A stretch of DNA of 62,649 bases, counting the filler, from Streblomastix strix (lineage: Eukaryota): assembly GCA_008636045.1 (NCBI GenBank). It is 4 parts of 4 records of this genome, joined end to end, with 100 filler letters (N's around TTAATTAATTAA, not from the genome) between each part and the next. Parts side by side here need not be neighbours in the genome. Positions count along the whole stretch, not along the records: positions 31,397 to 46,975 come from SNRW01000961.1; 3 more parts are not named here. The stretch is one strand, 5' to 3'. The stretch's first letter is position 1. The number at the start of each line of letters is the position of its first letter. The notes below the pieces were generated by a model. That model was not told where the DNA came from. It saw nothing but the letters and a program-made list of their open reading frames with translations, and ran no database searches. The translations under genes were made by a program, and so were the position numbers. Below are positions 6,355-47,075 of the stretch, one piece after another.

Positions 6355-6840
6355 ATGGACGTATATTTTCATATGTTTGATGTAATTTTAAATAATGATT
6401 AAGTGCTTTATAGTTCAGGTAAGTATAATACTATCGGCTTAATTAATGTGGTAAAAAATATTGGAAATTTAATTAATATAATTAATGAAGCACCAAAACC
6501 TTATAATCATGAAGAAATTGATGCCATACTTGACGAAAAATTAAATATTATAGATTAAATCGATGCATACACTAATTATGAAGAAGATGATTTGTTAGCA
6601 TTAAAATTAAATATTTCTGACTAAATTGAAGAATAAGAAGAAGGATAGACTTCTGATGATGATGATGATTAAGTATTTGTATGGACTTCAGACGATTATG
6701 ATTAAGTTCTTGGATAGATTTATGATATTGATAATTAAGTATTTGGATAGACTTCGGATGATGAATAAGATGACGGATAGACTTCTGATGATGATGATGA
6801 TGATCAAGTATTTGGACAGATTTGGATTGACTTCTGGTGA
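6355..6840 (+). pseudogene. Fragment of a viral fibre-like ORF running into the minisatellite
   Basis: ATG 6355 to TGA 6840 (TAR=Gln). It contains YNHEEIDAILDEKLNIIDQIDAYTNYEEDDLLALKLNISDQI, a Y-x-x-x-E-x-D-x-L-L repeat typical of phage/Polinton fibre proteins. Confidence 0.4.
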
Positions 6841-7585
6841 TGATTAATTACTTGGATCGACTTTTGATGATGATGATATAGTATTTGGAAATACTTTTAA
6901 TTATAATGAATTAGTACTTGAATAGATTTCTGATGAAGATTATTAAGTATTTGGATATATTTCTGATGATTATGATTATGAATTTGGATAGACGTTAGAT
7001 GATGATGATTACGTACTTGGATAGACTTCAGATGATGATGATTGTGCACTTGGATATATTTCTGAAGATGATGATTAATTAGAAGGATAGACTTCTGATG
7101 ATGATGATTAAGTACTTGGATAGACTTCGGATAATGAAGATTAGGTAGTTGGATAGACTTCAGATGATGATTATGTATTTGGATAGATTTCTGATGATGA
7201 AGATTAAGTAATCGGATGGACTTCTGATGATGATGATTAAGTACTTGGATAAACTTCTGATAATGATTAAGTACTTGGATAGATTTCTAATAATGATGAT
7301 TATATATTTGGATGGACTTCTGATGATGACGATAAATATGAACTTAGATTGACTTTTGATGATGATAATTGTACATTTTGATAAACTTCTGATGATGATG
7401 ATTAAGTGTTTGGATATATTTGAGATGATTACGATTAAGCATCTTGATATATTTATGATGATGATGATTAGATACATGGATAGATTTATGATGACAATGA
7501 TGATTATGTACTTGGATAGATTAATTATTATTATTATTAAGTGCTTTGAAAGATTTCATTTAATTATTATTATTTACTTTGATTG
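6630..7585. repeat. Coding minisatellite, roughly 30 diverged units of 30-36 bp (consensus GATTAAGTACTTGGATAGACTTCTGATGATGAT)
   Basis: Directly visible tandem array whose unit length varies in steps of 3 (GAT)n. The minus strand reads SSSEVYPSTQ repeats. Confidence 0.9.
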
Positions 7586-8215
7586 ATTTACTCCGATTAC
7601 TATTATGAACTATTTAAATGCAAAATATGACTTTTTTATAGTTATTTTTATGATTGGTTAATATTATCATTATTATTAAATTATTTAGTTTTGGATTCTA
7701 CAACAATGAATGTCAGATCTTTACCAAATTCATTGATAATATAATTTCCATCAAATTCAGCTTAAATAGATTTTGATACTAATTTTTTTTTATTCCGGCG
7801 CAATATCATTAATAGCTTTTGAATACGTGAAATCTGGATGTTGAAGAGCAACAGATGCTGAAATTCTATTTTCGGGATCAAATTCCAATAATTTTGAAAC
7901 AAGATCCAAAAGGAAGCTATCTGTTATTTTAGAATGTCTTTTTATGCACTTCAAAGTTAAAATTTTACTAATTATTAAGAAAATTAAATAAAGTTAAAAA
8001 ATAAAACTATTTCAATATTATAAAAATAAACTTTTAATTAAAAATTGAATTATTTTATAGAAAACAAACTCATAAAAAATAACAATTTTTAAAATTTTAG
8101 TAATAACTTTGTACAAATTTTCCTGCTTTGCAAACCCGAAGTCTGCAGTCTTCACATAAACTCATGCTGAACCAGGTGGGCTATGAAGTAGGATATTATC
8201 GCACTTAGTGTCTCT
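6630..8215 (-). pseudogene. Ser/Thr protein kinase pseudogene with a Ser-rich repeat tail
   Basis: 8105-8215 reads RDTKCDNILLHSPPGSA*VYVKTADFGFAK (catalytic loop and DFG, with an in-frame TGA). 7680-7950 reads DLVSKLLEFDPENRISASVALQHP (subdomain XI), followed by the SSSEVYPSTQ repeats. Confidence 0.8.
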
Positions 8216-15605: not shown

Positions 15606-15705
15606 NNNNNNNNNNNNNNNNNNNNNNNNNNNNNNNNNNNNNNNNNNNNTTAATTAATTAANNNNNNNNNNNNNNNNNNNNNNNNNNNNNNNNNNNNNNN
15701 NNNNN
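15606..15705. other. Artificial contig linker
   Basis: N44-TTAATTAATTAA-N44. Confidence 0.99.
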
Positions 15706-16049
15706 ATCACCATAGTTATTCCAAAAATCATCATATATCCGTATAGTTACTCATTAAGCGTTAAATGTAAAATTTCAGTTTATAGAATTTAAAAAGTTCT
15801 CATTATCAGAATTCAAAAAATAATATCCTCTGAAATATGTCTATTAATTAAGTTTATTATTAATTACTTAAATTTATTATTGAGTTTCTCCAATGTCTTA
15901 TACTGTTGTTCTTAATATTTATTGGATTACAATAATTTCTTATTTCAATGTGATTATTTTACTTAGAAAATCTTTATTTATTAAATTGAAGGTTACTCAT
16001 TTAAATTAATTTGAAACTGTTCTAATAAGCATCTGAGGATATTATTAGA

Positions 16050-25599: not shown

Positions 25600-28500
25600 A
25601 AATAGATTTTCAAAAATAATAATTATGAATTTTATATTTCACAATGTAGATTGGTTTTTAACGATGGAATTTGTGAGATTTTTTCATTTCGTTGACTGGC
25701 GACAAATTCCCATTCATTTAATCCTTTTTCAATCATCTCAGCCTATTCGCCATGCAATTACTCAAATTTATGGCTCGAATTCCTTTTTTAATTTATAATC
25801 TTAACGTCGAATTTTCTTAATATACGTAACTTTATTCTCTTATTTTTCACAATCTCGATTTAAAATACTTTGTTTGCAATCTTTTTTGGTTTTTACTCCA
25901 ACACGCTAGATGTACTCATTCCATCTTTTTATTCTATAAAGCTGTTTTTTATAAATATTTCAATAGCTGCTAAATATGCTTCGATAATGTTTTTTTTTTG
26001 CTTTAGTAATTGGAATTTTACTTAAATTTACAGCTAAAATGTCTTTTTGCAAGAAATATTAATAAGTTATCATAAAATAGTTTTTAATGATCTAATTCGT
26101 AAACTTACTTGAAGAATTTTGTTTTATCAACACTAATAGTTAGACCATTATATATTATGAAGATACTGATAATGTTTAGTACTAAATATATTCAATTTGT
26201 TATAGATATTTATATGAGATTGCTATGATTTAATATTAAAATCAGCGTTGTAACGTTTTATTCAGTGTGTGGATTTACATATTTCACTTCATATTCTAAT
26301 TAATCGTCAGAAATTATTGATTTCAATGATTCAATATCATGTTATGACATATCGCTGAACTTTCTTAGCTCATTTCCAACAACTGAAACTATAAATAACA
26401 ATGAACTGTTGAATTTGCTTCCGATAAATGATAGTTTTGTAAAATTTCTCTCTGAATATCCATCAATTAATTCGCTTAATACATTCGTAATCATTTTTTT
26501 TTCTGTGCCTTTCAAGCCTGTTAATATAATACATACTTCTGTTTGTAACTACGGATATTAAATCAAGTGGGAAATCTAATTCGGGATATATTCATAAATC
26601 TACTCATAGTCATTTGCAATAACTTTTCTTAAAAGGTGCAGTATCGGTGAAATTACTTATAGTTAATAGTAATATGAAAGAAAATCGTATGTCCAGAATT
26701 AAAAATTTGAAAAAACACTGTGATCGCTGCTTATAAAACATATATCAGTAATTAATAAGAAATCCTATTAAATATTTGCTATTTATCACAGTACTTATGA
26801 CTTCAAATCAATATATTTCGAATTTTCATCTTGAAATTTTCTTGCTATATCAAAGTAAAACCTTAGAATTTCATAAAATAAATTCTTTCCAGATTGCTCA
26901 TCATCGTAATAATCCATGTTTTCGATTTGAAATTCAAATATTGTTTCAGACTTTTTCTTTTGCAACAATGTTGTTTCAGTTTTATTTTGCAAACCTTGAA
27001 ATACAGTAATTTATGACAGCTACTTCTAAATTCTTTTTTATTTTAGTATGTATACCACCTCTCCCCAATATTTCTAAATTCTAAGTATTTTTATCAAGTT
27101 AGATATGAGTTCCTCGATGCATTTATAAGATTTTACTCTAATTTTATGAGAAATATCATCTAAACTGAATTATACTTTTATTTCTATGTTTTGAACCTCT
27201 ATCTTCTTGAAATCAATTGCATCGGTTTACGATCCGTTGCGTTATTTCCTTTTTTGAAGCCAATAACGGAATAAATTATTATAGATAATATTCTAACTTG
27301 AACATTTTAAAAAATCCCTGAAAACAATACGATGACTATTATTTTTCAGAAAAACTTTCATGATGCACACGAAAACATGATTTTCACGTATATAAAAAAA
27401 TTACAATTTTCTTTTATATTATCATAATATTCATTTGTGAAATCTTAATTAACATCATCGAAGGATCTCATTCCAATTATATAAGAACGCAATGTTAAAT
27501 ATGCTTAATTCTCCATCTGCGTAAGGATTATTTGTGTGAATTATGGTCCAATTAAGTCCATTAACTAATTTTTCTGCTCATTCTTTGGTATTTTCACATT
27601 TTTCCATTCAATGCTTCGAGTTGTTTGCTTAGCAATTTTACATTTTTTCTTATTATACTTAATTATGCTGCATAACTTTTATATCAAAGCTTAATATTAG
27701 AAATAAATTTTATATTTCTACAAGATCTGATTTTTCATAAGCGTTATTTAAGTCCTAATATGTAAGAAGTGAATTTCTCAATTCGTCTGTTTAATGTCTC
27801 AATTTTATTTCTGGGTTTTATGGTTTTCTCTTAGAATCTCGATATTAATATATCATGGTTCCAGGATGTACAATTTTTCTTGTTTTATAACTTTCTTCAA
27901 CAACAAATATTTCACTCATTTCTCTATCAGAAACTGCGGCAACACATAAAAATACATCAACAGAAAAATCCTTTGTACAAATTATATTAACCATAGAATT
28001 TTGATGTAATTTGCATGGACCCATGTTATAATAAATATGAATCCGCCTCGTGAAAATTTAAAAAGTCCAACATTGCGGCGTCAATTGTATTTTTCCATCA
28101 AGACTTGCACATCTGTAGAAAATATATATATATCTTGAAAATCTAATTGTTTTGCAGGTTATAACAGTTATATTTTGCTACTACTTATCTCATCACTCTA
28201 TATAACATCAAATTTCATTTCATTATTAATGTTTATATTAATTGCTGTCAAGTATTTGCTTTAAGCAATCTCAAGAGTATGACTTATGCATGAATTATTC
28301 TTTTTTTTTGACATAGTCTTTATCAGAATGATAATTGGTTTGATATGCTATCTTATTATAATTATATAGAATAATTTGTCACAATATAACTTTTTCTGCT
28401 ATTCTTTTAGAAATTTAATTTTTAGAACTCTCTCTATACGATAAATCATGTGTGTTTTCTTGAACTACACCATTTTCATTAGTTTACACGAAGATCCATG

Positions 28501-28700
28501 TAAAGATCTAGTTAACCAAATTATTTATGTTATTTATAGCCCAATTATTCATATAATAAAGGATTATCTGTTTTCAAATCAAAAAGTCGAGCCTTCGGCC
28601 GTTAATATCATGTTTCATCTTTTGATTTTTACCTCTATTAAAATATCTTAGCGGATATATCCGAGATTTGAGACTTATTCTTATTTGTACATTTGTCAAA
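25600..28700 (-). pseudogene. Primase (AEP/Prim-Pol) fused to a D5-like SF3 helicase (family B element), decayed
   Basis: The 5' part aligns by eye with 45197-46854. The helicase part reads KVIANDYEQIYEYI..LIQYP..CIILTGLKGTEKK (degenerate Walker A), VVGNEL, LKSIISDD..EVKY. Confidence 0.8.
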
Positions 28701-28862
28701 TTATTAAAAGCGACAAGACAAAAAGTCAAACTTTAGGAATTTATAATTCAGTACAACATTAATTAAAAAATAAAAAATAATTAAATTTATTAAAAAATTA
28801 TTGTTAAGATTTAAATTATTTTTTAAAAAACTTTCATATTTTGGCATTTTGACAAATCTCAA

Positions 28863-31296
28863 ATGTCCACCAGATCTCACTGCAAACCTCATTATCAACG
28901 TCAAAAACAGTAACAGCAATCATTGTCTCCATTAAATAATGTAAAACGTAATAAAACCCACCCATCTTAAGATCAACTTTAACAAGTATTGATTTAATAT
29001 CGCTAAAGTAACGCAATCAACAGCAAAATCGCAACATAAATATTATGAAAACAATAACATAAACAACAACGTAAAAAAACGATTTCGAAAATAGCGTCTA
29101 ATACTTAAATCACAATCTCGCTAACAGAGTAATAAGGAGCGTAAATAACATAAATCTGCAAAAAAAATATGAAAAGAGATAGATGCATGACCAGATGAAG
29201 AGTGAAAAATATTTATCTTGGACATATCATTATGAACCAAGTTTAGAAGAAAATTCTCGCGAAACTGTCCAAAAAAACCAAGTTGGAATTCAAGATCTCA
29301 TCGATAAATACGAAGATTCTGTTTTATAACTAGTTTCTTCCGGCGATCCCGAGTTTATAAAATTATCTAAGCCTCTTAATAGGGGCTTGCTTACGTAAGC
29401 AATTAATAAATCTTGGACAAATCACAATGGAATTAAACTGGATTTTCATAATTTAGCTGGTACAACTGCAATAAAAGTTGATTTCTTTCATAATGATATC
29501 CGTCTACTAGAAGATATTGACAAATTCGTAGAATATTTATATATACATGAAAAAAGAAAATTATTTAAATGTACTTTAGATTTTGATGTCTGTATTGAAC
29601 GCAAAGAAATGCCCGAAAACATGAAGGAATTACTGAGAATCAAGAAACTTTTACATTAACTCTAAAATATTGATAGGTGCTACTTAGTTATTAATAGAAT
29701 TAAAATTCCTGAAAACAATTAAAGTTAATTACATGCCCCAATGATTCTCTTCGACAGTAATTCAATCGACATTTTCAAAGAATATATAAGCTCATCAATT
29801 TTGTTTATGCAAGAATTCGGAGAACTAATTGATGAAAAGGAATTGATTTTCTCCATATTTCCGATATAAGTTAAATCATACGGAGTACCTTTTCCTGGTA
29901 AAACATGGATGAATTGATTAAAACTCTAAAGAAAAAGAATTTTGTCAAATATATTCACCCTCATGATGATTATAAATTCAGATTCTGGTATAATTTAATG
30001 TGAATGACTATGCCTGATTCAGGATACGCCATGCTAAAGCCATAATGAGTGATAATTGATTGATATAAACGAACTGAGGAATGTAGACGTTAAATATTTT
30101 CCTTCTACAGAATTTCAAAACAAAATTAACGAAAATTTCTCAAAGAATATCCAGGATTTAATCGGAATTATGCTAATTAAAATTGTTAAAAAATTTTATT
30201 TAAATATCAATTGTTATGAATATGTCGGCAATAGATTCGATATCGATGTTAAAAAACCGAAATATTAACGGTAAATTTCATATGCTGATCCAAAAATTGA
30301 TGGATGAAAACCTAATTAAACTCTTTTATTAAATGATGATAATGGAAACAAACATACCATATATATCATAAATGTCGAGAAACAGAATCGTTTTCTTATT
30401 TGTCCAATCTTAAATAATCATTCAATCTATGAAAAGGATGAAAATAGGCACTTTTAAAGTAAATGGACGCTCATATTAAAGAATGCACGATGAAACTTTG
30501 AAATCCAAATAAATATGATAGATTAGAAAAGTTTTCAAAACCATCTATACTACATTTTACATCGAATTAAACTTAAAAATATCTGCTTGTCCACAATTGA
30601 TTATAAAAATATAAACTTACGTAATATTTCAAAATTTTTCTATTTAACTCAATATTCTAATAAGAAGATGATAGAAAATATCCTATTCTCAAAATAATAT
30701 CTGTTATATTAGCTATAAAAGCTAAGTAAGGATTAAAATCATGTTATTTTGACAGATGTCCACATAATTTCTGCGAAAGCAGCAACGATGAACGCATTTT
30801 TATAGATAAACCGCTTTATTAACTATTTGTTGAAGCAAAATAAATATAATTCGATAATAAACTCTCAGTTGATGTATTCTAACATTATGAAGTATCGATA
30901 ATTTGATTTGACTTGCATAAAACATAAATTACATTAATATTCAGAAATATCCGATCGAATAACTATGAAATTGTTGTTTTTATTGGATAATCAACATCTC
31001 CTAAAAATTTTATTATAAAATCAACTAAAAAATCTATAATTCATGAAAAAAAAGTATTTAAACTTAAGCCTTATTCGTCTTAAGTTTCTTGATGCAAAGA
31101 ACTATTTAGTTGACGATATTTCCTTTGAGAAATTCATAAAGGATGTATTCCCGAATGAAATTTAGACGCAAAGCGTCGTAGAAAATGATAAGATTTATGC
31201 AGATGCGGGTATTCTCGAAAAATCAAAATTGATGGTGAATTCCATTGGTTTCTTAAAATGTCTATGGTTCTACAAGAAAATTAACTTTTTGGCGAA
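28863..31296 (+). pseudogene. polB: Protein-primed PolB, N-terminal half (family B element), cut by the contig end
   Basis: ATGTCCACC at ~28863; colinear with the reverse complement of ~42600-45025 (VDFFHNDI, FKCTLDFDV, NINCYEY, RLKFLDAKNYL). Confidence 0.8.
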
Positions 31297-31396
31297 NNNN
31301 NNNNNNNNNNNNNNNNNNNNNNNNNNNNNNNNNNNNNNNNTTAATTAATTAANNNNNNNNNNNNNNNNNNNNNNNNNNNNNNNNNNNNNNNNNNNN
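31297..31396. other. Artificial contig linker
   Basis: N44-TTAATTAATTAA-N44. Confidence 0.99.
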
Positions 31397-31661
31397 CACT
31401 TGCAGTTGTAGTAATAGGCGTAGCTAATCCTGGAACTAAATTAAGTTATAACGCCAATCTTTCTCCAGGAATTGTAATTTGCCAGTTAACTTAACATGAT
31501 TATACCATTGAACATGTTGCATTGCCTCTTGCGCCAAGTGGAGCACGAGTATATCTTTGTCCATCACTTGTCATCTGAGAAACAGGCTGATCAAAGAATT
31601 CTTGTTGACTCAATGTAAAACTTTACGGATGAATCAGTGCTTATCTTAGCACTTCTGACAT
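31397..31661 (-). CDS. N-terminus of a viral ORF, candidate major capsid protein, 3'-truncated
   Basis: ATG 31661, open to the contig end: MSEVLRQALIHPQSFTLSQQEFFDQPVSQMTSDGQRYTRAPLGARGNATCSMVQSCQVNWQITIPGERLALQLNLVPG. The capsid identity is inferred only from context. Confidence 0.45.
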
Positions 31662-31713
31662 TGAAAAATATGTTAAAACATAGTCAAAATGTTATACTTT
31701 TGCAAACTTTTAT

Positions 31714-32034
31714 ATGTAATCGCTTGCTGAGAAACTCATATAGATATAATTTGTTTATAATTTAAAATAATTTGTACGTTTTATTATTCAAACAAACGCA
31801 CAAGCAAGAAAATATACTAAAATTACTTTGGCATTCTTTTATGGATTGAAGAATTTTGGCTCAAAATTATTAGGCGGTATAAAGAAAGTTGTAGATTGGG
31901 TTGCACCCACGCTTCATAAAGTAATCGATACGTTAAGCGGACCGGTAAGCATGTTACATCCAGGTGCTGGATAAATAATGGGTACGATTGACAATATCGC
32001 CGGCGGATTTGAGCGACATTTGAATAAACACTGA
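31714..32034 (+). CDS. Small viral protein with an amphipathic, adenovirus pVI-like helix
   Basis: Intact 107-codon frame. From 31828 it reads LAFFYGLKNFGSKLLGGIKKVVDWVAPTLHKVIDTLSGPVSMLHPGAGQIMGTIDNIAGGFERHLNKH*. Confidence 0.65.
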
Positions 32035-32081
32035 TCTGAATAATTGATTTGATTACTATTTTTCATATTCGAAACTTAAAG

Positions 32082-32339
32082 ATGGAGGAATTGTATTTAT
32101 TTGCAAAATATTTAGGTAAAACTCATAGTGCGTCAGATTACGATGTATTTAAAATATTTTAAGCTCTGATTGATGATAAAGAATTATATGATGAGCAAAA
32201 ATAGTTCAATGAATAGAAAAAATAAGAATATAATGACAGATTTGGAATAATTACTGAATAAACTTAAGATGTTATAAGTTATATTCACAATTTTGATATG
32301 TCAAATTGTGTAAGTTAATAGAATTCACAAAACAATTGA
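32082..32339 (+). CDS. Small hypothetical viral protein (85 aa)
   Basis: Intact ATG to TGA under TAR=Gln (MEELYLFAKYLGKTHSASDYDVF...); overlaps the convergent ORF by 55 bp. Confidence 0.5.
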
Positions 32340-32767
32340 TTATATGGATCTTGAATAAACTAATTATAAATCTATTTTTCTTCATCATTTGCTTCAGATA
32401 TAATGTATTTCTTTATTTATTATGGTAGCTGATTCATATCCATCATCTTTTCTATTTGATTATATTCATTTGCGTATTATTTACTGTTATCGCCATATTT
32501 TTTATTTTTATAGTCCTCTTCATTTACGAATTATTTCATTTGTTGCAATTTGCATTATAGAGTTGAAAATTATTTGCTAATTTTTAACAATTCTTTAAAT
32601 AACACTTGCTATTATTCTGATTTATCTTTGATTATCAGAGAATGCAGAGTTTCTATTGTTGTATTTATTAGATCTTCATCTTCATAATTTGATTTAGAGA
32701 GTTCAGTGAAGAGTTATTTTAGTTGTTTTGACATATTTTCTACCCAACTTTCAGTTGAAACATACAT
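32285..32767 (-). CDS. Hypothetical viral coiled-coil protein (160 aa)
   Basis: Intact ATG 32767 to TGA 32285 under TAR=Gln (MYVSTESWVENMSKQLKQLF...). Confidence 0.6.
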
Positions 32768-32802
32768 TACTTGCAAAAATAAATTAAATGCAACTATTTA
32801 AA

Positions 32803-35027
32803 TCACAGAAGAATCAATCCTAATGTTATTAATTTTGCACGCCAACATTCGTTAGACTCATCTCTATAGAATCGACCTGTTGTATCTGTACTATTTTAAC
32901 TCTATAAGATTGAATTTCAAGCAGAATAATTAATTGAACCACTGCTCGCACTACCAGTTGCTCCAGTTCCAGTAATTACTGATCCATTGAAAGATAAAGT
33001 ATTTCTTTCAGCACTTTTTAATAGCACTCTATTAGCTATATTTTATTCTGATGTTTTAGCTATTAATAATGATTTATCATATTTTTTGTATATTGACCAT
33101 TAATTATCAATTGCACCAGTAGTTGAATTTGGGTTGCAACCCAAGTAAAATAAAAAATAATTACCTGAGGTATTAGCTATACAGAGTCCGTCATTTTCAT
33201 TACCATTTAAAGGGTTAATTTATAAAAGTTTATTGAAATATTTTTACCAATAACTGTTTAATCAGTTCCAACATCCACTAATCCATTATCATTAAATCAT
33301 ATTTATGAACTTTCATTATTAATACTTAATCCAACGCTATGATCTGTTTATCGCAATGAACAAGGTACTAAAGTTAATACACCATCATTATTTTTACTCA
33401 CTTCCCATTATCCTGCTACTGTTCCACTAATTGTAGAATTATTGCATGCTAAATATAATGATGATTCATTCAAATGAATTCCAATTCTAATTCCCTTATT
33501 ATAGTTTGATTTCATTCGATCTGTTGGATTAATTTATAGAGTATTTGGCATTATACTTCCATACCCATAGTCATAATTGATAGGTATTTATGTTTCAGTT
33601 GATACTGTGGTAACGACATCTTATGTTAATTTCTCGGGGATTCTAGCAGTAGAATAAGTGTTTTAATCAGTTACTACTGTCTTAATAGTACCAACTGTTT
33701 CTAATCTAATATATGCAGAATAATAGCTGCTGTGCATCTTCAAGTATGAGTATGAAATAATTAATTTGCACCATTATCAATCTAATAACTAATATTTACT
33801 TTGGTTGGTGCTGTAAATATTCCATATATAGTAGTGAAAACATTTACAGTAAAATTACGTTATAGTCTGATGATTTGAACTGCATTGTAAGCTGAATATA
33901 CTTTAAATTCAATAAATGGACTACCATAATTTGCATCTGCAGGAAATACACATAATCTAACCCATCCAGAACCAGAATATGTTCTTGAAAGCATAATTTC
34001 TTTTGTGGTTGTTTCACCATTAGCACATAAAATTTCTGTAGCTAATCCTCCAGCTTTAATAAATTTAATTGCTGTTATATTTCCATCATTAGATAATTAT
34101 TTTGGAATAACATGATCATTTCTACAATAATAATCACTTGTACCATAAGCCACTGCTGATACATTGACTAGTAGTACATTAGTAACTGATGGATCAATAT
34201 TCAATGGATGTTAATGTTCCGATCTAGCATATATATTAGACGAACCAGCTGTTCCAGCACCAGTATCTTTTTTCGGAACACTATTACTTAAATTTACAAG
34301 ATGAGTATGGTCAGATCTCACATAAATATTGGCAGTGCCTACATCACCAGTTGCAGTATCTTTTGCAGGTAAAACAGTGGAAACTTATAGAGGATGTTAA
34401 TGGTCTCCTTTAGCATAATCATTTTAAATTCCAGAAACACCTGCTCCACTATCCGCTAATGGTGTATTATCACCTGCTGGGGCTACCTAATCAGGTACTA
34501 TATCACCACTATTATACCAATTAGTTTCATACATCCATACAGTACCACTTTCAGCTGAGAATGCAAAATCACCATTGGCAGAGTTTTCTAATTATTATAT
34601 ATCTGTGTTCAATAAATAATATCCCCTAAAATGTGTTTATCTATTAAGTTCATCATTAATTGCATTAATTTATAATTATAATCCACCAATATCTTAAGTA
34701 GCAGTTCCAAATGTCAATTATATTATATTAACTTCTTATTCTAATGTTGATATTTTTCCAAAGAAAAGATTATCAATAAACTTATATTTTTCGATATCAT
34801 AACACCATTTGTAACCAATTTCATTGCATAATTCTAAGAAATATCGATTGGCGCATATATTAATGAGTTTTAGTCATCAATTGTCAATTAATATTCACTT
34901 CTTGATATTTAATTACTGGAACTTGAGGATTTCCTATGATATTATATCAAATATTGGAAATCAGATTATATTAATGATCGTTCTGCTTATATCTGTTATT
35001 AACCCAGTGTCTTTGCCAACGTCACAT
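32803..35027 (-). pseudogene. Phage-tail-fibre-like protein, with a few frameshifts
   Basis: Four G-x-x-G-x-x-x-x-Y-x-R/K-x-D/E-H-x-H-P type repeats; ITAIKFIKAGGLATEILCANG; LVDVGTDQTVIGKKYF; duplicated C-terminal beta-rich modules (xINP...G.RI...LYL.C...QW). Confidence 0.7.
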
Positions 35028-36132
35028 TTGAAAGTTATGCAAAAATAAATCTGCAATGAATTTAAACATCAATTATTCATTCTTTAAGACCATATATTTA
35101 CTCAGCCACTTATTAAATTCAATGAATTCATATTTGTTACGAGTATCATATACTAACATAAATTCATCAAAATCTAAATTCCAAATAGAATTTTCTTCAT
35201 ATGCTTGCAATAAATCACTTTCGCTAAGATGAGTACCCAAACTTAAAATATGTGATAGTATTCTTGCTGTTTTGAACAAGTAACTTGGACGTAATGCAAC
35301 AAAAAATACACTGTTTTTTATATGTCTATTATCGGAAACTAAATGAGTTATTATCTTCGCTAATCAAGATGAAAATCTTTAAATTTCAGCATTACTTCCA
35401 ATATCATCAAAAAGTAACAGCGAATTCAGCAGAGAAACATGAAATAATATTGGAATTTTTTGTTATTTTTAACTCGGCATCTCCGTTCGCTTATGATATA
35501 GATAATTTCCTTTCGAAATACTCATTATGAATAATAGCTGGAACAGTAAATTTCATAATCATTGTCGGAACACTGTATTTCGTTATTTTATCAATTCATT
35601 CTTATTCAAATATCTCAGCAATTCTTCTTGCATAATCCTTTGGTTTCTCCATTTATTTTTCGATAGACGCGGATGCAAGACGTATTTGATTCTCTTCAAT
35701 TGGATTATTTTGAATAATTCTTTCCTTAATTCTTTATATATAATCTGATTTGTAAGATATGTTTAGTTCACGTAATTTCCAATAAGATTAGACTTCTTTT
35801 ACAGAATACTTGATCTCCTCAAATTTTGGTAAGAAATGCATTGCTTCCTCATAAGTTATATTGGTTAATATTATATTCTTCGAGTTAATATTCAATGCCA
35901 TAGTCTCATATGCACCAAAGTTAGAGAAATATAAAATGAAAAGATTAATTTTTTATTTGTATATTAAAATTCGTTTGCTTAATAATGTTGTTTTCCCTGA
36001 ACCAATTGCGCCAACAATATAATGATTCCCATTGGTTAAGAGTAATGAATTTCTGGTTAATGGTTTGATTTTGCATTCATCTAGCATAGAATTATCGTCA
36101 AATGTAACTGATTATATCTCTTCTAATGACAT
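35022..36132 (-). pseudogene. A32/FtsK-family genome-packaging ATPase
   Basis: ATG 36132; Walker A HYIVGAIGSGKTTLL; Walker B SLLLFDDIG; Arg-finger region LVSDNRHIKNSVFFVA. One frameshift and internal TGAs. Confidence 0.85.
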
Positions 36133-36589
36133 TTAGGATGTACGCAAATGATCGCCGTAAAAACGGCTTTATCCCGAAGGGATAATCTGTTATTATTAAT
36201 AATTAATTCTATTTTTTTGGTGTTAATTTCGTAGTATCCGTAATTTCATTATCTATTCCTGAATAGCTTACATAAATAATCTCATTAATAAAGTAATTAT
36301 GGAGTTATATTGATGCAATTTAAGTGCCATTGAATATAATCATCTATATATTCTGATTTGTTTATCGTCGTGGAAAGAAATTAAAGATGTAATCATTAGA
36401 GAAATCACAAGTGGAATAGCCTTATTTTCATTAGTCTAAGTATTCGGATGAATAAATAGAAGATTTTATTAAGGAAGCGATTGAAAAATAAGATGAATAA
36501 CTTGCTAAGATGTGGAAATATATATTGTATTTGAAGTTATTGAATTTTAAAACGAATGATAATTAAAATTAAAAAAAACATTTTACTTC

Positions 36590-38222
36590 AATTGTTATGA
36601 ACTGTGTATGAATCACATATTTGAATAGCAAAATCATCAGATAAACTAATTTAACAAATAGTTTTTATTGTAACATTATCATTAGGATCAATACAACAAT
36701 CGATAGGAATTGCATCATTCCAACATATCGAATAACTATAATTTTTTTCGGCATACATTATTGCATATAAAGGAATATTTCATGTTACTCCAGTGAATTT
36801 TGGTTTTATAGCATTATCAACGATTGAAAATAATGTATATCTTGTATTCCAAGCATTATTTGGATCTGGATGTACCATTGGTAAAGATAAATATACTCTG
36901 TTATTTTATGCTGTTAAAGTTCCCCATTAGCGAATTTCATACATTACATAAGCTATTGGTCACTAATTAATTGATTCAATTCATTCGTAATCTAATTAAT
37001 CTTTATCAATAGTATCCCCATTAGTCAGAAGAATCTGATTATTTGTTCCACTTAAATTAATGATTTTATTAGCTGTGATAGGTTATGTAAATGTCTAAGT
37101 TCCAGTAATAATTTATGTAGTATTTATTGTTATTAAATCAGTTAAAGATGATTTCTTAAAGTATTAACTTAAATAAGTAAAATTTTTTATAATTTCATTA
37201 TCTATTTATTTATTTAGTTGATCATTTATACAACTTCTATAGTCATTCTATTTCTAATTGTTATTTCATCATCGTGTCACATTCTGATTTCATTTATTAT
37301 AGTTCTTCTTCTGACGATGCTTCGAGATCTGAAATTTGTAATTCTTACTCCATTTGAAACAAAAATAAATTCGGAACCTCCATGTTTCTTTCAGAAATCA
37401 TCAGGACCAATGCCTGATTCTAGTTTGTCAGATAATCTAACGAAGTACTTTTTTACACGATATAGCTTCTCAATACTATTCCACAACACATTGTCAATGT
37501 TAGAATTAGAGACATTCTTGATGAAAACATCCATGCTTCTTACAATTTCTTTCTTCTTGTATTTTTTTGATGTGCAATTATTATATCTCATCAATGGTTC
37601 TTCCATAACAATCTCAATATCATTCTCTTCTTCTTATGTTATTAATGCCCAGAGTTTGATATTACTATCTGAATTGATTATGAAATCTTCACATTTTTTA
37701 CGGGAATTAACAGTGTGCCATGCAACATCAATGATAAATTTCTGCACTTCTAAGTTAGGATGAGATAAATATGTTTCTTTTACAACTTATTCTGGCTCAA
37801 CTTAAGCAGTTTCTCGTTAAACTTCTTTAAATTTAAGAATGTTATACTCCCTATGACCAAATCGTTAACGATTTGGCAACAAGGCTACGCAGTCTCGCGG
37901 GCGATCTGCTGAAATTCCTCTTTAGAATTCCTCATTTTCATCAGAGTTGAATTCTTTATTTAATTGAGGAGTTTACGCAGAGCGCAAGTTGATTACGTCG
38001 GTTTACATGGATGAACCGCTCAGTTCATAAGAAAATATAGGTTGGAGCTAGTTCCGTAAAATTTAAAGAAACGGAATCTAAATCTTTTTCCGAAAACCAT
38101 TTGTTACCGCATCATCAATGGTTTATAATCTCGCCTTATCTTCTTCTGAAAGTTCCTTTTTAGCAACATTTGCATGCTTACTTTTATGAACTCTAATCTG
38201 ATTCGTTTATATTGTTGACATG
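36590..38222 (-). pseudogene. Viral ORF(s) with a C-terminal fibre-like segment
   Basis: ATG 38222 starts a long open frame with a few TGAs. Near the end it reads TINTTQIITGTQTFTQPITANKIINLSGTNNQILLTNGD, a fibre shaft motif. Confidence 0.55.
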
Positions 38223-38293
38223 ATTTTGAAACCTTTTGGTTTGCTTGGAACTTAAAGTTGCGAGTTTAAATATAAATTAAATCAGATAACAAG

Positions 38294-38850
38294 ATGAATC
38301 AAGCATAAGTATTCAAGAATCTCGTAGAAAATAATACATCAATTGAGCATTTCAATGATGGATACATCATGAAAGCAAAGTAAAAGATAAAACTATATGA
38401 AGAAGGAAAGAAATAACCAAAAACATTGACTTAAGCGAACGTAAACTTTAACAAAGCGAACAATTATACAGCGATGATGAAGATATTAAATAAACTATTG
38501 TCGAAAAATCAGCGGAGCTAATTGAAGGTTATCGTCTGAAACTCGCGAAAACTCCAAAGCCAACTCCATAAAAAATAATAAAGAAATCATAAATAAATTA
38601 CACTTAACCATAAGTTGATTTTGAAGAATTAATACTTTTGCGAACTAAAAATGCACTTACTAAATAATTATATCAAGATTCAATAAAGTATGTTGAAAAA
38701 ATGTAAGGATAAAATAAAGATGTTTTAGGTAAAAGAAGTAATTTTAGGAAGCATAGCGTCAGCCATAAACTCTGCCTCAAACAGAGAATCCTGAACTGTA
38801 AGAAGTAATTTCTGAAATACGTTTCAATGAAACAGATTTATGGGGATAAA
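38294..38850 (+). pseudogene. Hypothetical viral ORF, frameshifted
   Basis: MNQAQVFKNLVENNTSIEHFNDGYIMKAK...; K/Q-rich. Confidence 0.4.
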
Positions 38851-38899
38851 TATATATATCATAAAACAAATTTTATTCTTATTTAAACTCTTATTTTTA

Positions 38900-39210
38900 T
38901 TTCATATATTCTTTTAAATCAACAATTTTTGCAGAATCTATTATTTTCTTTTCCTTTTCATCGTATTTATCTACGATTTAATGCATTAAAATAAGGTCAA
39001 CTTCATTGTTTACAATCAATCTTCGCAATCTAATTTAAAATATTGCTAAGAATCAGGTGTTAATCACCGATATACTTTCATTTTTAGTAATTCCTTTGCA
39101 CGTGCACGTTTATAGCTAATTTCAGCAGCTTTAAATGCTTCTTCTTCTGTTTTATATTTAAATCGAGATGATTATCTCTTTGCATCAACGACGTTTGTAG
39201 AATTTTACAT
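38900..39210 (-). pseudogene. Small basic viral protein (KYKTxEEA family)
   Basis: MQNSTNVVDAKRQSSRFKYKTEEEAFKAAEISYKRARAK; homologue at 18120-18445. Confidence 0.55.
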
Positions 39211-39269
39211 TTTTTCAATTTAACTATTTTATAAAAAGATAATTTCCATTCTAGCAGACATCATGTTTT

Positions 39270-40514
39270 GAAATTTTATTTATATTATTAATTTAATTAA
39301 TATATTTCTTTTTCAACCAATTTGCAATATTAGACAGGTAATTTATAACATTTACATCAGAATATGGCTTTAGCAACTTGGCAACAACATTTCCATTTGA
39401 ATATCTTATGAATTCAGCTAATTCATTGAAATTTCTTCTTTATTTAAAAAACTGATGCCCTGTTTTAGAATAATCAAGATGAATAATTAGGATATTTCCC
39501 GGAAAAAATAACATAAGCGCTTGTTTCTTTTGTTATTTTTTGATTTCAAACAGCTAATTTTACTATTATCTTAAGTAAATCCCTTCAATATCATGATAAG
39601 GATTGACTTATTATTGGGTAAATTTATTGTCATAGGCAGAATGAAGAGTCTAGTTATACATCTATACCATATATTGCATTAAATCATTATCTGCAAACTT
39701 CTCAGAATAATTGCCAAATCCATTGCGAATAGTTCTGATAACAGAATCGACGACTTTGTTATGATTTGTGAATTTAGATTCGGTAATGAATGAATTAATG
39801 TTATTCTCTAAATAAAATGTTTTCAATATATTTCCATCAAATCCTTTCTCGCCATCGCCTCTGATATTCGTAACATTATAATTTTTAACCAATATTTTCA
39901 ACGCATTCTTGATTTAACCTGCTGATTGATCTCATAATGGGAAAATTACCAGATATTTTGTGTTAATATTTTTTGCAGAAGAGATATATTTAATTTACAC
40001 GAATGATATGTTCGTCCATTGAAAATACCAAATTAATTTCTCAAGATCCGAAATATGGAGAATAATATGGACGATTTAGCTTTGATAAAGGTTCTATTTA
40101 ATAATCATTAGGAGTATCTTGTACTTTTTGAGGTATTTCGCCATGAATCTTCTCATATTATTCAATTTTCTTTTTAAATGGATAATTTAATAGTTTTGTT
40201 GAGACTGCGTCATTTCATCGCTAAATCGCTGGCGATTTTGATGTTACTTATTCTTGTTTTACTGCTTACTCACGAAAGTGAGCAGGCAACGAGGTTGCTT
40301 ACAAACTAGGTTTGTTTTGTAATCTTGGAACACTTGATTAATCATATTTTAAAACATACTATTTAAATAATTACTCAAACATCTTTTCATTGAATTTTTC
40401 TTGATTTCACTTATTCGAATTCTTGACAAACTCTTAAAATTTCATTTGATTCATGTTATGATATGCAATATATTCGATCCATTTTGACACTTTTTCCTAT
40501 GTTTGTACGTTCAT
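39270..40514 (-). pseudogene. Polinton-type rve integrase
   Basis: ATG 40514; LNRPYYSPYFGS*EINLVF, YLFC.NINTKYL, NIRGDGEKGF, FTNHNKVVDSVIRTIRN, MYNQTLHSAYDNKFT. Contains frameshifts. Confidence 0.88.
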
Positions 40515-43500
40515 TTATAAGTTTATGCAAAAAATAATTTAAGATAATTATTGACGGTTTAAAAGCTGCACATTGAATATGGCTCATCAATTATATATTT
40601 ATCAGCGTTAATTCCATATAAGATAGATGAGCATGATTGATTTTTAAGAACTATTGTTTTTGTTCTAATTCCACTAAAGCCAAAACGATTTGATATTACT
40701 TCTGACATTAAACCTTATTTTTAAATTACAGATTTCCGTGTAACTTCAGTGTGATAATCATCTTAAATATTTTTAATAAAGAATTTCTTGAAATATTCAG
40801 ATTTTACTATTGATTAATCACTCTTAGCTTCATAATTTCGCAGTTGTCATACGTCTCTAAATAATAACACTTAGGGGCTAAAGCAAAGCATGTTTTTACT
40901 TGATGTTCAATGTTTCAACCAAGTAATTTCTTCTTTTCATGAATTTAATCAGATATTGAGAAAAATTAAAGATACAATTTATTCCATAATTTTTAGCTAA
41001 GAATTGGCCAATTTTTATCAGCGATTCTTAATCATAACCTGTCTGTATCACCGTAAATTACATGTATTTTATTCATATCAAGACATCGAACAAGAAAATT
41101 AAAGAAAGCATTAAGATAGAAATATTTGGAAATATCCATCACGAAATAAGCTACTTATAAAAGTGTTGAGCATTAACAATTCCGCTTTTCTAACTCCACC
41201 TCAGATAAATTATCAGAAAAATATCTTTCTGACTTAAATGTATTTAGCATATGATACATGCCAAGTTTTTATCTATTGCATATCCTAATATCTTGAAATT
41301 TCTCAGTATTTAGTGCATCATAACCAAATGAAGCATTCAGTTTTATTTTATACATTAATTCTAGATTTTTATTACCTGCAGCTTAAGCATCACATTTAAG
41401 CTTATGAGTTTCATAGACGAATTCGTGAAATGAAGTATTTTTAATGTATATTGTGATTCATTGTATTTCATCAATTATAATATGACATCTATCTATAAGA
41501 AACCATAAGTAATAGTTGTTTAAAGTCATGAATTCATTATGCGTCGACGATAGCATAAGTAATTTTGATTCTTCTTTATCGCATGCTACTTGATGTTCAG
41601 TCATATTTTTGTAAGTATATTCTCCGACAGTTTGCATATTCATTACTATCTTAAAATTTTGCCTAATTACAAGTAAATTTATAAATTCATTGATAAATTC
41701 TTCTGGAATATGAGCTTTAACAACTGCAATGAACAATTAAACCTTGTTTTCGATGATATCCTCATCGCAAGAGAATCTATTTTCATTATAAATTATTTAT
41801 CTAGCTCTGTATTCGTCTTTCACTAATGGAGTTATATCTCCTGGCTTACACATCTTATGATTTGTGTACTGAATCAGAATATGCGAACTTGAGCTCATTA
41901 CAGAAAGGATAAAAGGAATTGAAATCAAGGCATGTTAGATGTGAGATGATATAGGACAAATCTATGGAATGAACTGCTTTATCTGAAGAATTATACTTAA
42001 ATCTGTTAATTGGTATTAATCCAGATATATTTTCTCTGTGCAATACGTACGAATTTCCTCCAATCATACTGTTCCGTAAGATTTTATAAACATCTTGGTC
42101 AGAAATAGTCATTGCAAGATGATTAAGTTATGCGAATTTTCGTAATTACTTCATTAGTCGACATATATCTTTATCTTTGTTTGATGCATATTTATTGCAG
42201 TAAAGAGAACAAGGCTTAACAATAGTTTTTATGTGAGACTTTTCGTTATCTATTCTATATAAAGTTGGTTGATTTTTATAAGAAAATCTAGATTAACACA
42301 TATGGCAGCTAAACGATATGAATAAATCATGAAAATGTTTATAATCAGAATCAGATGCATTGTGATCCACGCCTAGTTTTTTTTAGTTTGTCTTGTGGTT
42401 TATAAGATTCCACTTTATATTTCCATTATTTTTCGGTTAAATTAAATGACAGATCATTAGTTTAAGGAGAATAAGCAACTCCGTTGCCTGCGCACCTTGT
42501 TGTATAATCAATGTCAATATCAAAATTCTTATAAACTTGAGAATTTTTATCAAGACAAGCAAGTTTAGCAAGTGACATATTCACTAATAAGTCAATTTTG
42601 TTTTTGACATATAGATTTATTAAGAAATCGATGGAATTTATCATCAATTTTGATTATTCGAGAATGTTATTTTCTTAAAACATAGCTTAACCAACTTCCT
42701 CTATGAATTTCTCAATCGAAATTTTGTAAACTAAATAATTCTTTGCATCAAGAAACTTAAGACGAATGGAGACTACGTTTTAATCTTATTTTTTCATGAT
42801 TTAAATATATTTTTCGGTTGGTTTTACTATAAAATATTTAGTAGATGATGTTTATCCAACAAAATCGACAATTTTATAGTTTTTCGATCGGATATTTCCG
42901 AAAATCAAGGTATTTGTTATTTTTAATGAATCAAATCCAATTAACGGTACCTCGAAACGTTAAGATACCTCATCATGGTTCGAAACATTAGCATCTTAAC
43001 TGCTTTGCGGGGACATATTATAGATTTTAACTTACTTTGTTTCTGCAAATAGTTAATCAAGCCATTAATCTACAAAACTGCGTTCCTCATTGTCAAGCTC
43101 TGCTTGAAAACTCGCTTAACTTCAATTGAAATAGCATGTTTTTATTCCAGACTTAGTTTAAAAGTTGATACAACAGAAATTGGTTTGATTACAGGGTATT
43201 TTATATAATCTTCTTATTGAAGCGCTGAGTTAATTAAAAAAAAGTAATATAATATTACGTTGTCTTATATTCTTATAATTGATTGTGAGAAAGAAGATAT
43301 TTATAAGTTTAATTCGATGTAATATGCAGTGCAAATGGTTTTGAAATCTTCTGTAATCTAACTTATTTATTTGGATTTCCAAGTTTCATCATGTATTCTT
43401 TAATGTGAGCGTCCATTTTGCATTAAATATGTCTATTTTCATCCATTGCATAGATTGCATGATTGTTGCATATTGGACAAACAAGCTTATCAATCAGTAT

Positions 43501-45025
43501 CTCAACGTTTACGATATATATGATATGTTAGTTACCCATATTATCGTTTAATAAGAGAATATTATAAGGTTTATGCTCATCAACTTATGAATCAGCAAAT
43601 GAAATTAGTCGTTAATATTTTGGGTTTTTTAAATATCATCTTCGAATCCTTCGCCGACGTATTCGTAGCAATTGATATTTATATTATATTTTTCGGCAAC
43701 TTTATTTGCATCATTCCAATTAAATCCAAGATATTCTTTGAGAAATTTACGTTAATTTTGTTCTGGAATTCCGTAAAAGGAGAATAACAAACGTTTTCCT
43801 TCCGCAATTCGTATATGTCTATCAATTTCAACGTCTTTCGAATAAAGCATAGTTACGCATGTTAAATTATACCAGAAACAGATGTTATAATCATCGTCAA
43901 TATCTATATATTTGATAATATTGCTTTTCTTATGAATTTTAATCAACTCTTCCATGTTTTTACGCGGAAAAAGTAGTCTGTGAGATGTAATTTACATCGA
44001 ATAGATTGCGGCAATCAATTCCTTTGTATAAATTAGTTCTCCGAATTCTTGCATAAATAAAATTGATAAACGTACATATTTTTTGAAAATATCGATTGAG
44101 TTTCTATCAAAAAGAATCACTGGAGCATGCAATTAACTGAAATTGTTATTAATAAGCTTAATTCTGGAAGTAACTAAGTAGCATCCGTCAATATATTGGA
44201 GTTTATGTATAAGTTTCTTGTTTTTCAGTTATTCCTTCATGTTTTCGAGCATTTCTTTACGTTCAATACCGACATCAAAATCAAAAGTACATTTAAATAA
44301 TCTTCCTTTTTCATGTGTGTACACATATTCAATGAATTTGTCAATATCTTCCTGTGAACGGTTATCACTATGAAAGAAATCAACTGTTATTGCAGTTGCC
44401 TCAGTTAAATTATGAAAATCGAATTTAATTCCACTGCGTCTGGTCCTAGATTCATAAATTGTTTACGTAAACAAATCCATATTTAGCAGATTAGATAATA
44501 GCATAAACTTGGGATCGGCAGAAGAAACTAACTATAAAACAAAATCACCGTATTTGTCGATAAAATCTTGAATTTCAACTTGGTTTTTTCTGAGAATTTA
44601 TTGACAATTTTCATCTAAACTTTGTTCTTAATGATATATCCAAGACAAGTAATTTTCACAATTCATCTAATTGCGCGTCTATCTCTTTTCTTATTTTTTT
44701 TTACAGATTTACGTTATTTACGCTTCTTGTTTCGCAGTTTGTGAGATTCTGATTAAAGTTTGCGATACTGTTTTCGAGGTTAATTTTCGATGTTTTCTTT
44801 AAGATTATTTCTTGGAGGTTTTATATGCAGCTTCGTCGGCGAACTTTTAACTTACAAATTTTGCTGATGATTAAGTTGCATTTGTGATATTAAATCACGT
44901 GTCTGTTAAAGTTGATGTTAATATGGGCGTGTTTTATTATTTTTTGCCTTATTTAATGGAAGTTATGATTGCGGAAGCTGTTTTTGACGTTGATTACGTC
45001 GTCTGCGGCGAGACTTGGTGGACAT
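40511..45025 (-). pseudogene. polB: Protein-primed family B DNA polymerase with a basic N-terminal extension and an HNH insert
   Basis: ATG 45025 (MSTKSRRRRRNQRQK); RNSMIGGNSYVLHR; motif A CLDFNSFYP; YLWFLIDRC; motif B KIKLNASFGYDALN; motif C IYGDTD; FALAPKCY. Its stop overlaps the integrase ATG. Confidence 0.92.
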
Positions 45026-45196
45026 TTGAGATTTGGTAAAATGTCAAAAAAATCAAATTCATAAAAAATAATTGAAATATTAAAAATGATTTTTTATTAA
45101 ATTTTATTATTTCTAATTTTTTAGTTTTTAATTTTTGTCATAATTAATTATTAATTCGTGATATTTGATTTTTTATTTTATCACTTTTAGTAAATT

Positions 45197-46854
45197 GGCA
45201 AATGTTTAAATAAGAAAAAGTCCCAAATCTCGGATATATCCGTTAAGATACATAAATTAGGGAAAATCAAATGATGAAACATAAATTAACCGTTAGGTGC
45301 TGAATTTTTTGATTTTGAAACAGATAATCCTTTATTATTAGAATAATTGTGATATAAATCGCATGGAAAATATAGTTAAGTAAATCTTTACATGGATTTT
45401 CGTAAATATAGTGAAAAACATGAATTTTCACCAAAAACGCTTGATTTATCATATAGATAGCGCACTAAATATGAAATATCAAAAAAATTAATAGATAGAA
45501 TTTAGTTTGCGACAATTTATCTGTATAACTATAATAAGATAGCATATCAGATCAATTATGAATCCGAAAAAGCATATGCCAAGAAAAATATGAATAAAAC
45601 ATGCTCAGGTTATACTCTTGAGATTGCATTATGCAAACACTTCGCAGTAATTGATATAGACATTGATCATGAAGAGAAATTAGATGTTTCGCAGCATGAA
45701 AAGATAAGAAATAGCATAATATAACTGTTTTAACCTGCGAAACAATAAGATTTTCAAGATGCGTTTACAACTCCAACTGATGCACAAATCTTGATGGAAA
45801 AATGCAATTAACGTCGCAACATTGGACTTGTTAAATCAGCAAGAGGCGGACTTCATACTTATTGCAACATGGGCCTTCTCAAATTACATCAAAATTCTAT
45901 GGATAATGCAATTATAACAAAGGATTTTTCAGTTGATGTATTTGCATGTTTTGATGAAATGAATTTTAGAAACAGAAATGATTTAATTGAAGTTGACGAT
46001 ACATACAAAACAAGAAAAATTGTGCAACCTGGAACTTAAATATATAAATACCGAGATTCAAAGAGAAAACAACTAAGTCCAGAGATAAAATAGAAGTTAT
46101 AAACAAACGAATTGAGAAATCCAATTCTTACATATCAGGACTTAAACAACGCTTTTGAAAATACGGATCTTACAGAAATATAAAATGTATTTCTAATATT
46201 AGGATTTGATATAAAGATTATTCAGCTCGATGTAGCAAAATTAGAAAAGATCGAAGAACGCAAAAGTTGTAGTCAAACATCAGCTGCAGGCGGAATCTAT
46301 GGCTTAGAAAAATGCGAAATGACCAAAGAATAAACAGAAATATTAGTTCATGGATTAGATGATATCATAATTCATACAAATCATCCTCATGCAGAAGGAG
46401 AATTAAGCTTATTTATGAAGTGCACTTATATAAATGGATTGTGATCCATCGACGAAGTTGATGAAGATTTCATAAATGAATGCTATGATTATATTGAAGA
46501 AAATAACAATTACTCTTCATAAGCGTAAACATGGTTTCAAGCATATCGTTAACGTAATTCTGAAAAATAATAATCGCCATATTGTTGGCAGGGATTTATC
46601 AAAAAGTTCAAGCCAGACTATCACACATAACAATTTGTTACATTATTGGCATCAAAAATGAAATAAAGCTGCAGATCAGAATCCGCTGTTATCGATTTCA
46701 AGAAGATATAAGTGCATAACATCGAAATAAAAGAATAATTCTGATTTGATGACATTATACATAAAATTAGAGTAAAACCTTATGATTGTGTTGAAGAAAT
46801 AATATCTGACTTGACAAAAATACTGAGAATTAAGAAATATGGGAGTGAGGTGAT
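45197..46854 (+). pseudogene. AEP/Prim-Pol primase domain of the primase-helicase, 3'-truncated
   Basis: FAVIDIDID (motif I), LVKSARGGLHTYCN (motif II), FSVDVFA (motif III), KIVQPGT. The homologue at 25600-28700 continues into an SF3 helicase. Confidence 0.85.
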
Positions 46855-46975
46855 AAATTTACGTTAATTTTGTTCTGGAATTCCGTAAAAGGAGAATAAC
46901 AAACGTTTTCCTTCCGCAATTCGTATATGTCTATCAATTTCAACGTCTTTCGAATAAAGCATAGTTACGCATGTT
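46855..46975 (+). repeat. Exact 121-bp direct copy of 43743-43863 at the contig end
   Basis: AAATTTACGTTAATTTTGTTCTGG...GTTACGCATGTT is identical at both positions. Confidence 0.95.
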
Positions 46976-47075
46976 NNNNNNNNNNNNNNNNNNNNNNNNN
47001 NNNNNNNNNNNNNNNNNNNTTAATTAATTAANNNNNNNNNNNNNNNNNNNNNNNNNNNNNNNNNNNNNNNNNNNN
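46976..47075. other. Artificial contig linker
   Basis: N44-TTAATTAATTAA-N44. Confidence 0.99.

Follow-up and report, generated by a model that had tools for sequence, protein, structure and literature searches.

The small gene at positions 31828–32034 of the analysed DNA encodes a cationic amphipathic peptide that belongs to a family under purifying selection, and it is located head to head with a major-capsid-like gene. Our preferred reading, held with moderate confidence, is that it is a stand-alone membrane-active virion peptide that works like adenovirus protein VI and is predicted to help the particle to breach a membrane at entry. The sequence-only reading had proposed a penetration peptide resembling protein VI; the cationic amphipathic helix, the purifying selection and the capsid linkage support the membrane-active part of this proposal, while descent from protein VI is unsupported.

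The window (the whole stretch of DNA that was analysed, 62,649 nucleotides) is AT-rich eukaryotic DNA composed of separate contigs. They are joined by linkers at 15606–15705, 31297–31396 and 46976–47075, each with the structure N44-TTAATTAATTAA-N44, and gene order across these linkers is meaningless because the joined contigs are unrelated. The peptide gene is located within a 15,579-nt segment, 31397–46975 (SNRW01000961.1), of Streblomastix strix, an oxymonad protist from the termite gut. The long frames of this segment are open under code 6 only (TAA/TAG = Gln), and both this code and numerous Polinton-like elements are reported for S. strix (PMC10120064). The segment is a decayed Polinton-like element with the peptide ORF inside. 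The following features were recognised in and next to it:

31297–31396, no strand: artificial linker (44 N, 12 nt, 44 N), with a different contig to its left.
31398–31739, minus strand: first 114 codons of a major-capsid-like gene (~650 aa), cut by the contig end.
31740–31827, no strand: AT-rich spacer of 88 nt that separates the two divergent starts (92 nt in the metagenomic locus L001).
31828–32034, plus strand: small amphipathic peptide gene (P0002), 68 codons, with TTG as the start and without Gly2.
31831–31935, plus strand: codons 2–36 of this gene, the cationic amphipathic helix (hydrophobic moment, AlphaFold, profile).
32082–32339, plus strand: ORF of 85 aa with no assigned function, after the peptide gene; other copies have it as well (fused gene models P0066, P0138, P0028).
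32833–35061, minus strand: gene with 2–3 frame changes, which we take to be fibre-like from its repeat motifs; no family match.
35596–36339, minus strand: P-loop ATPase piece (AAA_29, E 0.006), presumably of the packaging ATPase.
39215–39931, minus strand: piece that we take to be integrase-like from its motifs; no integrase family match.
40387–44894, minus strand: protein-primed PolB, broken (PF03175, E 8.5e-5 on 41035–41457).
45353–46444, plus strand: ORF, presumably primase-like from its motifs; no family match.

The PolB gene is present in pieces, and its family match is below the curated cut-off. No terminal inverted repeats were detected within the contig, which lacks one end of the element or both. 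No adenain-type protease was found among 26 ORFs compared with Pfam or among 134 ORFs scanned for its motif; the contig stops within the capsid gene. As for the link to the adenovirus/Polinton lineage that had been drawn from the peptide, the Polinton-like affiliation follows from the other genes of the element and not from the peptide itself.

It should be mentioned that D/E-H-x-H motifs are repeated in the fibre-like gene, at 33740–34873 and 15706–15990 (both minus strand); we take these repeats to be reminiscent of phage tail fibres. In another subfamily the fibre-like gene is located downstream of the peptide gene on the same strand, and in some copies (P0057, P0197) an HNH-like ORF is found downstream of the peptide gene.

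The peptide ORF was described correctly in the sequence-only reading: it begins with TTG at 31828–31830, remains open to TGA at 32032–32034 and contains the whole of the quoted peptide. Its codon 49 is TAA (TAG in other copies), and the frame therefore requires code 6; a reading under code 1 or 11 ends at this codon and was rejected. The suggestion that the TTG is a mutated ATG also proved right, since all four contigs covering position 31828 have A there (run X1); homologues have Met at this place. Two other starts or gene models were discarded. An in-frame ATG upstream, at 31714, overlaps the start of the capsid gene on the opposite strand, and the only gene models that use it are those of copies without a start; the database model P0003, in which antisense capsid sequence is joined to the peptide, is an artefact.

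The window copy agrees with the natural copy nearest to it at 56 of 68 positions and has a net charge of +3, against a family mode of +6. Changes private to it comprise three synonymous and seven non-synonymous ones out of 10, as expected under neutrality (p=0.47). The sequence-only reading had noted an intact frame beside broken large neighbours. This is not a sign of selection, the start codon and Gly2 being lost and the private changes neutral-like. By simple arithmetic, a 204-nt ORF would have a chance of about 75–80% of staying open if breaks arose as often as in the fibre gene (2–3 frame changes per ~2.1 kb), so that an intact frame is unremarkable. Of the neighbours, the fibre gene is indeed broken; the capsid gene is not seen to be broken and is only cut by the contig end at 31397. 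The window copy probably makes no normal product.

The family itself is large. A single-sequence search revealed 33 homologues, all of them named S. strix proteins, most exactly 68 aa long and starting with Met-Gly-Phe at the same place. A wider profile gave 212 matches, 120 of them listed. Among the collected proteins, 182 distinct Met-started family sequences of 66–76 aa were picked with a simple motif filter; 167 of them have Gly2 and 177 have Phe3. Several weak or multi-domain matches (for example P0147, P0185, P0191, P0205, P0212, P0214 and P0215), which look like unrelated amphipathic stretches, were left out. Identity is 60–91% among the S. strix subfamilies and 25–44% between metagenome relatives and S. 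strix. A metagenome scan yielded two loci (L001 and L002) out of 50 candidates; scans of viral contigs and of prokaryote genomes revealed no loci of the family.

The peptide family is under purifying selection across copies. We classed 39 variants inside the ORF, 35 from one listing and four among those listed in another. Differences present in at least two contigs at a share below 90% were synonymous in 11 of 16 cases against 22% expected (p=9e-5), a count made in one run, of contigs and not of copies, in which most variants of codons 1–15 are left out. Variants seen in a single contig were synonymous in 3 of 13 cases, and the direct contrast between the multi-contig and private classes was not significant (Fisher p=0.11). 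The synonymous bias of the multi-contig differences, together with the neutral private changes, thus indicates that the family is selected and that the window copy is decaying. The selection on the peptide in turn suggests that the elements spread as particles until recently.

The amphipathicity proposed from the sequence was borne out. The hydrophobic moment of residues 2–36 peaks at 99 degrees, a value reached by none of 5000 shuffles; in the four sequences analysed the peak lies at 99–101 degrees and is reached by 0–1 of 5000 shuffles. Residues 2–19 have a moment of 0.50–0.68 and a charge of +2 to +4 in 14 out of 14 sequences (shuffle p 0.001–0.017), and the 100-degree periodicity persists down to ~30% identity. 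An AlphaFold model based on 14 homologues shows helices at 3–43 and 45–66 with a break at residue 44 (mean pLDDT 62). No signal peptide was seen in the peptide. Gly2 may be acylated; the PROSITE myristoylation pattern fits 3 of the 182 sequences, Ser/Thr6 occurs in one of the 182, and in the L001 family the Gly is located at position 3.

The second line of evidence is the neighbouring gene. The capsid candidate named beforehand is located on the minus strand at a distance of 88 nt from the peptide ORF; what is present of it is the 5' end of a capsid-like gene of ~650 aa. Its family has 70 matches, several of which are named major capsid protein in the database, and its nearest language-model neighbours are Capsid_N/Capsid_NCLDV (0.96), Sputnik MCP (0.95) and a parabasalid cluster (0.97). 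PDB and Pfam searches with this protein gave no capsid match; its AlphaFold model (pLDDT 37.5) is too poor to confirm the fold, and fold searches were uninformative. The linkage of the two genes is evident from locus tags, for which 210 peptide tags and 70 capsid records were used: for 20 of the 70 capsid records the next tag, on a contig of the same length, belongs to a peptide record, as compared with 0.5 expected, and in no case is a peptide record found farther off on the same contig. The head-to-head layout occurs in several subfamilies, as can be seen from the many gene models in which the peptide is fused to antisense capsid sequence. The 88-nt spacer may contain a divergent promoter common to both genes.

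The two metagenomic loci bear on this linkage in different ways. In L001, which uses the standard code, a peptide with ~31% identity is separated by 92 nt from a long divergent ORF. Neither hhalign nor HMM comparison matched this ORF to the window capsid family, and no match to that family was found through Pfam or PHROGs. By eye, it has several motifs in the same order as the S. strix capsid of Table S3 in PMC10120064, and from this comparison it may be a capsid of the Trichomonas type. The same divergent layout in L001 would then support the capsid-peptide linkage; that its neighbour has no tool match to the window capsid family counts against our preferred reading. The same is true of L002, where no capsid gene is present within the 810 bases upstream of the peptide. 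Its positions 2–737, upstream of the peptide relative, contain a divergent ORF of 119 aa besides the end of a tail-like gene (phrog_88, E 6e-4).

It appears that S. strix has capsids of two types, the ~650-aa family of the window (A3) and a Trichomonas-like one described by Bellas et al. In that study 820 capsid genes were counted in this species (Bellas et al. 2023, PMC10120064, Table S4 row). Five tags of the window capsid family are not among the listed rows of its supplement, and the family may be an uncounted lineage.

According to the mechanism that we propose, the peptide would be co-expressed with the capsid protein from the 88-nt divergent spacer, packaged under the capsomers and released on uptake. 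The helix would lie parallel to the bilayer, with its Phe/Leu/Ile/Val face directed inward and its Lys face on the headgroups, and a helix lying on the surface in this way would rupture the enclosing membrane. No protease would be needed for the peptide, because the helix begins at residue 2.

Amphipathic helices can also act as scaffolds or bind proteins, and designed coiled coils and a tape-measure protein are the best PDB matches of the family profile; this would count against a membrane function. We consider it rather unlikely that the peptide is an internal cement or scaffold whose helix binds the capsomer cavity or the genome and aids assembly without membrane lysis. Such a role agrees with the fixed linkage to the capsid gene, with weak similarities to tape-measure proteins and to proteins of the internal head, and with the binding of the N-terminal part of protein VI to the hexon cavity (10.1101/857581). 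However, the hydrophobic face and the charge persist while the sequence drifts to ~30% identity, and the peptide is found beside two very different capsid types, so that a lipid target would fit better than a fixed protein pocket.

Action on membranes at exit instead of entry is unlikely. In this case a late, non-packaged peptide would rupture the nuclear envelope or the cell for particle release; the physical chemistry would be identical to that of the entry role, and co-expression with the capsid gene is likely. However, the window scan revealed no transmembrane stretch of the long, uncharged kind that viroporins typically have, and an integrated, vertically inherited element would gain less from lysis.

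The comparison with protein VI concerns both the way of working and the origin. Both proteins have a cationic amphipathic helix at the N-terminus, in which a short motif is similar, and both come from double-jelly-roll viruses, the capsid fold being predicted in our case. In adenoviruses the protein VI gene is located next to the major capsid gene, as the peptide gene is here; unlike it, the peptide gene is divergent from the capsid gene. A profile of 12 family sequences, compared with the PDB, matched residues 40–50 of pre-protein VI with its positions 3–13. This region falls inside the lytic helix, the amphipathic helix of protein VI comprising residues 34–54 (10.1101/857581). The matches cover 11 positions with E 3.9 and 5.5; their ranks are 11 and 13 among 13 hits, and designed coiled coils and a tape-measure protein score above them. 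The other PDB searches, including those with A2, P0002 and P0229, gave no protein VI match, and neither 24 aligned members nor the further members searched matched Pfam MCPVI (PF02993). Cecropin (0.79), followed by pre-protein VI (0.75), is the nearest named language-model cluster; both are lytic helices, and both scores lie below the lead threshold of 0.9 on a scale where shuffled proteins reach 0.8 one-third of the time. Among 84 matches in 1.84 billion representatives no adenoviral protein was recognisable, as judged by reading the sequences. Overall, the likeness to protein VI is no stronger than chance.

The overall architecture differs as well. Protein VI has a 33-residue propeptide, a PPxY motif and an 11-residue cofactor tail (10.1101/857581, PMC4113798), and it is 250 aa long versus 68 aa for the peptide. 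The viral protease cleaves the propeptide off, and protein VI also has a basic import signal. The propeptide has no counterpart, for all 182 family sequences have the helix starting at residue 2, as do the distant relatives; PPxY and a four-residue basic run occur in none of the 182, and the protease-cofactor tail is absent, since the peptide ends at residue 68. Adenain-like sites at 14–17 in 112 of the 182 sequences were considered and rejected, as they are located mid-helix and are absent from most distant relatives.

We therefore regard it as doubtful that the peptide is a true homologue of protein VI, an origin compatible with the membrane mechanism. The exact position of the profile match at the lytic helix, the rank of MCPVI as the second named language-model neighbour and the double-jelly-roll context speak for homology; the shortness and low rank of the match, the missing MCPVI hit, the absence of the propeptide, PPxY and basic tail, and the higher score of cecropin speak against it. 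With the same low probability, the family would represent the minimal ancestral lytic helix of protein VI, stand-alone, protease-independent and head to head with the capsid gene, to which adenoviruses later added the propeptide, PPxY and cofactor tail. Were common ancestry demonstrated, entry in the adenovirus style would go back to early Polintons; such ancestry does not follow from the data presented here. The likeness, from the sequences compared, is most likely convergent. Descent from protein VI is unsupported, which does not lower the claim of a protein VI-like way of working.

Use by the host, for example of a domesticated peptide against bacterial symbionts, or a chance ORF is very improbable despite the likeness to antimicrobial peptides, because in the elements the peptide remains linked to the capsid gene, the window copy decays neutrally, no signal peptide is seen, and fixed length with synonymous bias excludes a chance ORF.

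The stand-alone virion peptide that we favour resembles several known systems. Cecropin and frog-type antimicrobial peptides likewise form a cationic, Gly-rich amphipathic helix; unlike them, the peptide has no signal or pro region and is encoded by a viral element, and the matches to them are not significant. Cupiennin-like genes, predicted to encode membrane-active peptides and annotated by their likeness to lytic peptides, were reported in the virion modules of adintoviruses (animal Polintons) (Starrett et al., PMC8502044) and have been used as Polinton markers in insects (10.1101/2025.02.07.637071). The 'cupiennin' genes belong to animal elements, are paired with GasderminX and adenain and were compared here by description only. 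Buck et al. (PMC11071296) proposed 'Macc' (membrane-active capsid core proteins) as a hypothetical polyphyletic class with proteins VI and X as canonical members; the available text of that work makes no mention of Streblomastix, Trichomonas or termite. Thus, genes of this kind are already known from proposals for animal Polintons. The Metamonada-group endogenous Polinton-like viruses of Bellas et al. (2023) have the same host species and code as the element studied here; the S. strix capsid in their Table S3 is of a different type from that of the window, and entry peptides are not discussed in the available parts of that paper (PMC10120064). In the literature surveyed we found no description of the metamonad peptide family, although subscription papers and the remainder of the supplements may hold one.

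Lipases, SLATT pores and fusogens have so far been the candidates for the way in which protist Polinton-like viruses cross membranes (PMC12220804, 10.1101/2023.08.22.554363). The peptide is a metamonad candidate of 68 residues that is easily synthesised, and its hundreds of natural variants show which positions matter.

Several duplications and repeats were also noted in the window. A second polymerase/primase region at 27053–31146, on a different contig, is 75.7% identical to 42694–46855 in inverted orientation. At the contig end, 46851–46975 is a near-identical 125-nt duplicate of polymerase sequence at 43739–43863, probably an assembly artefact. A degenerate tandem repeat region is located at 6611–7615.
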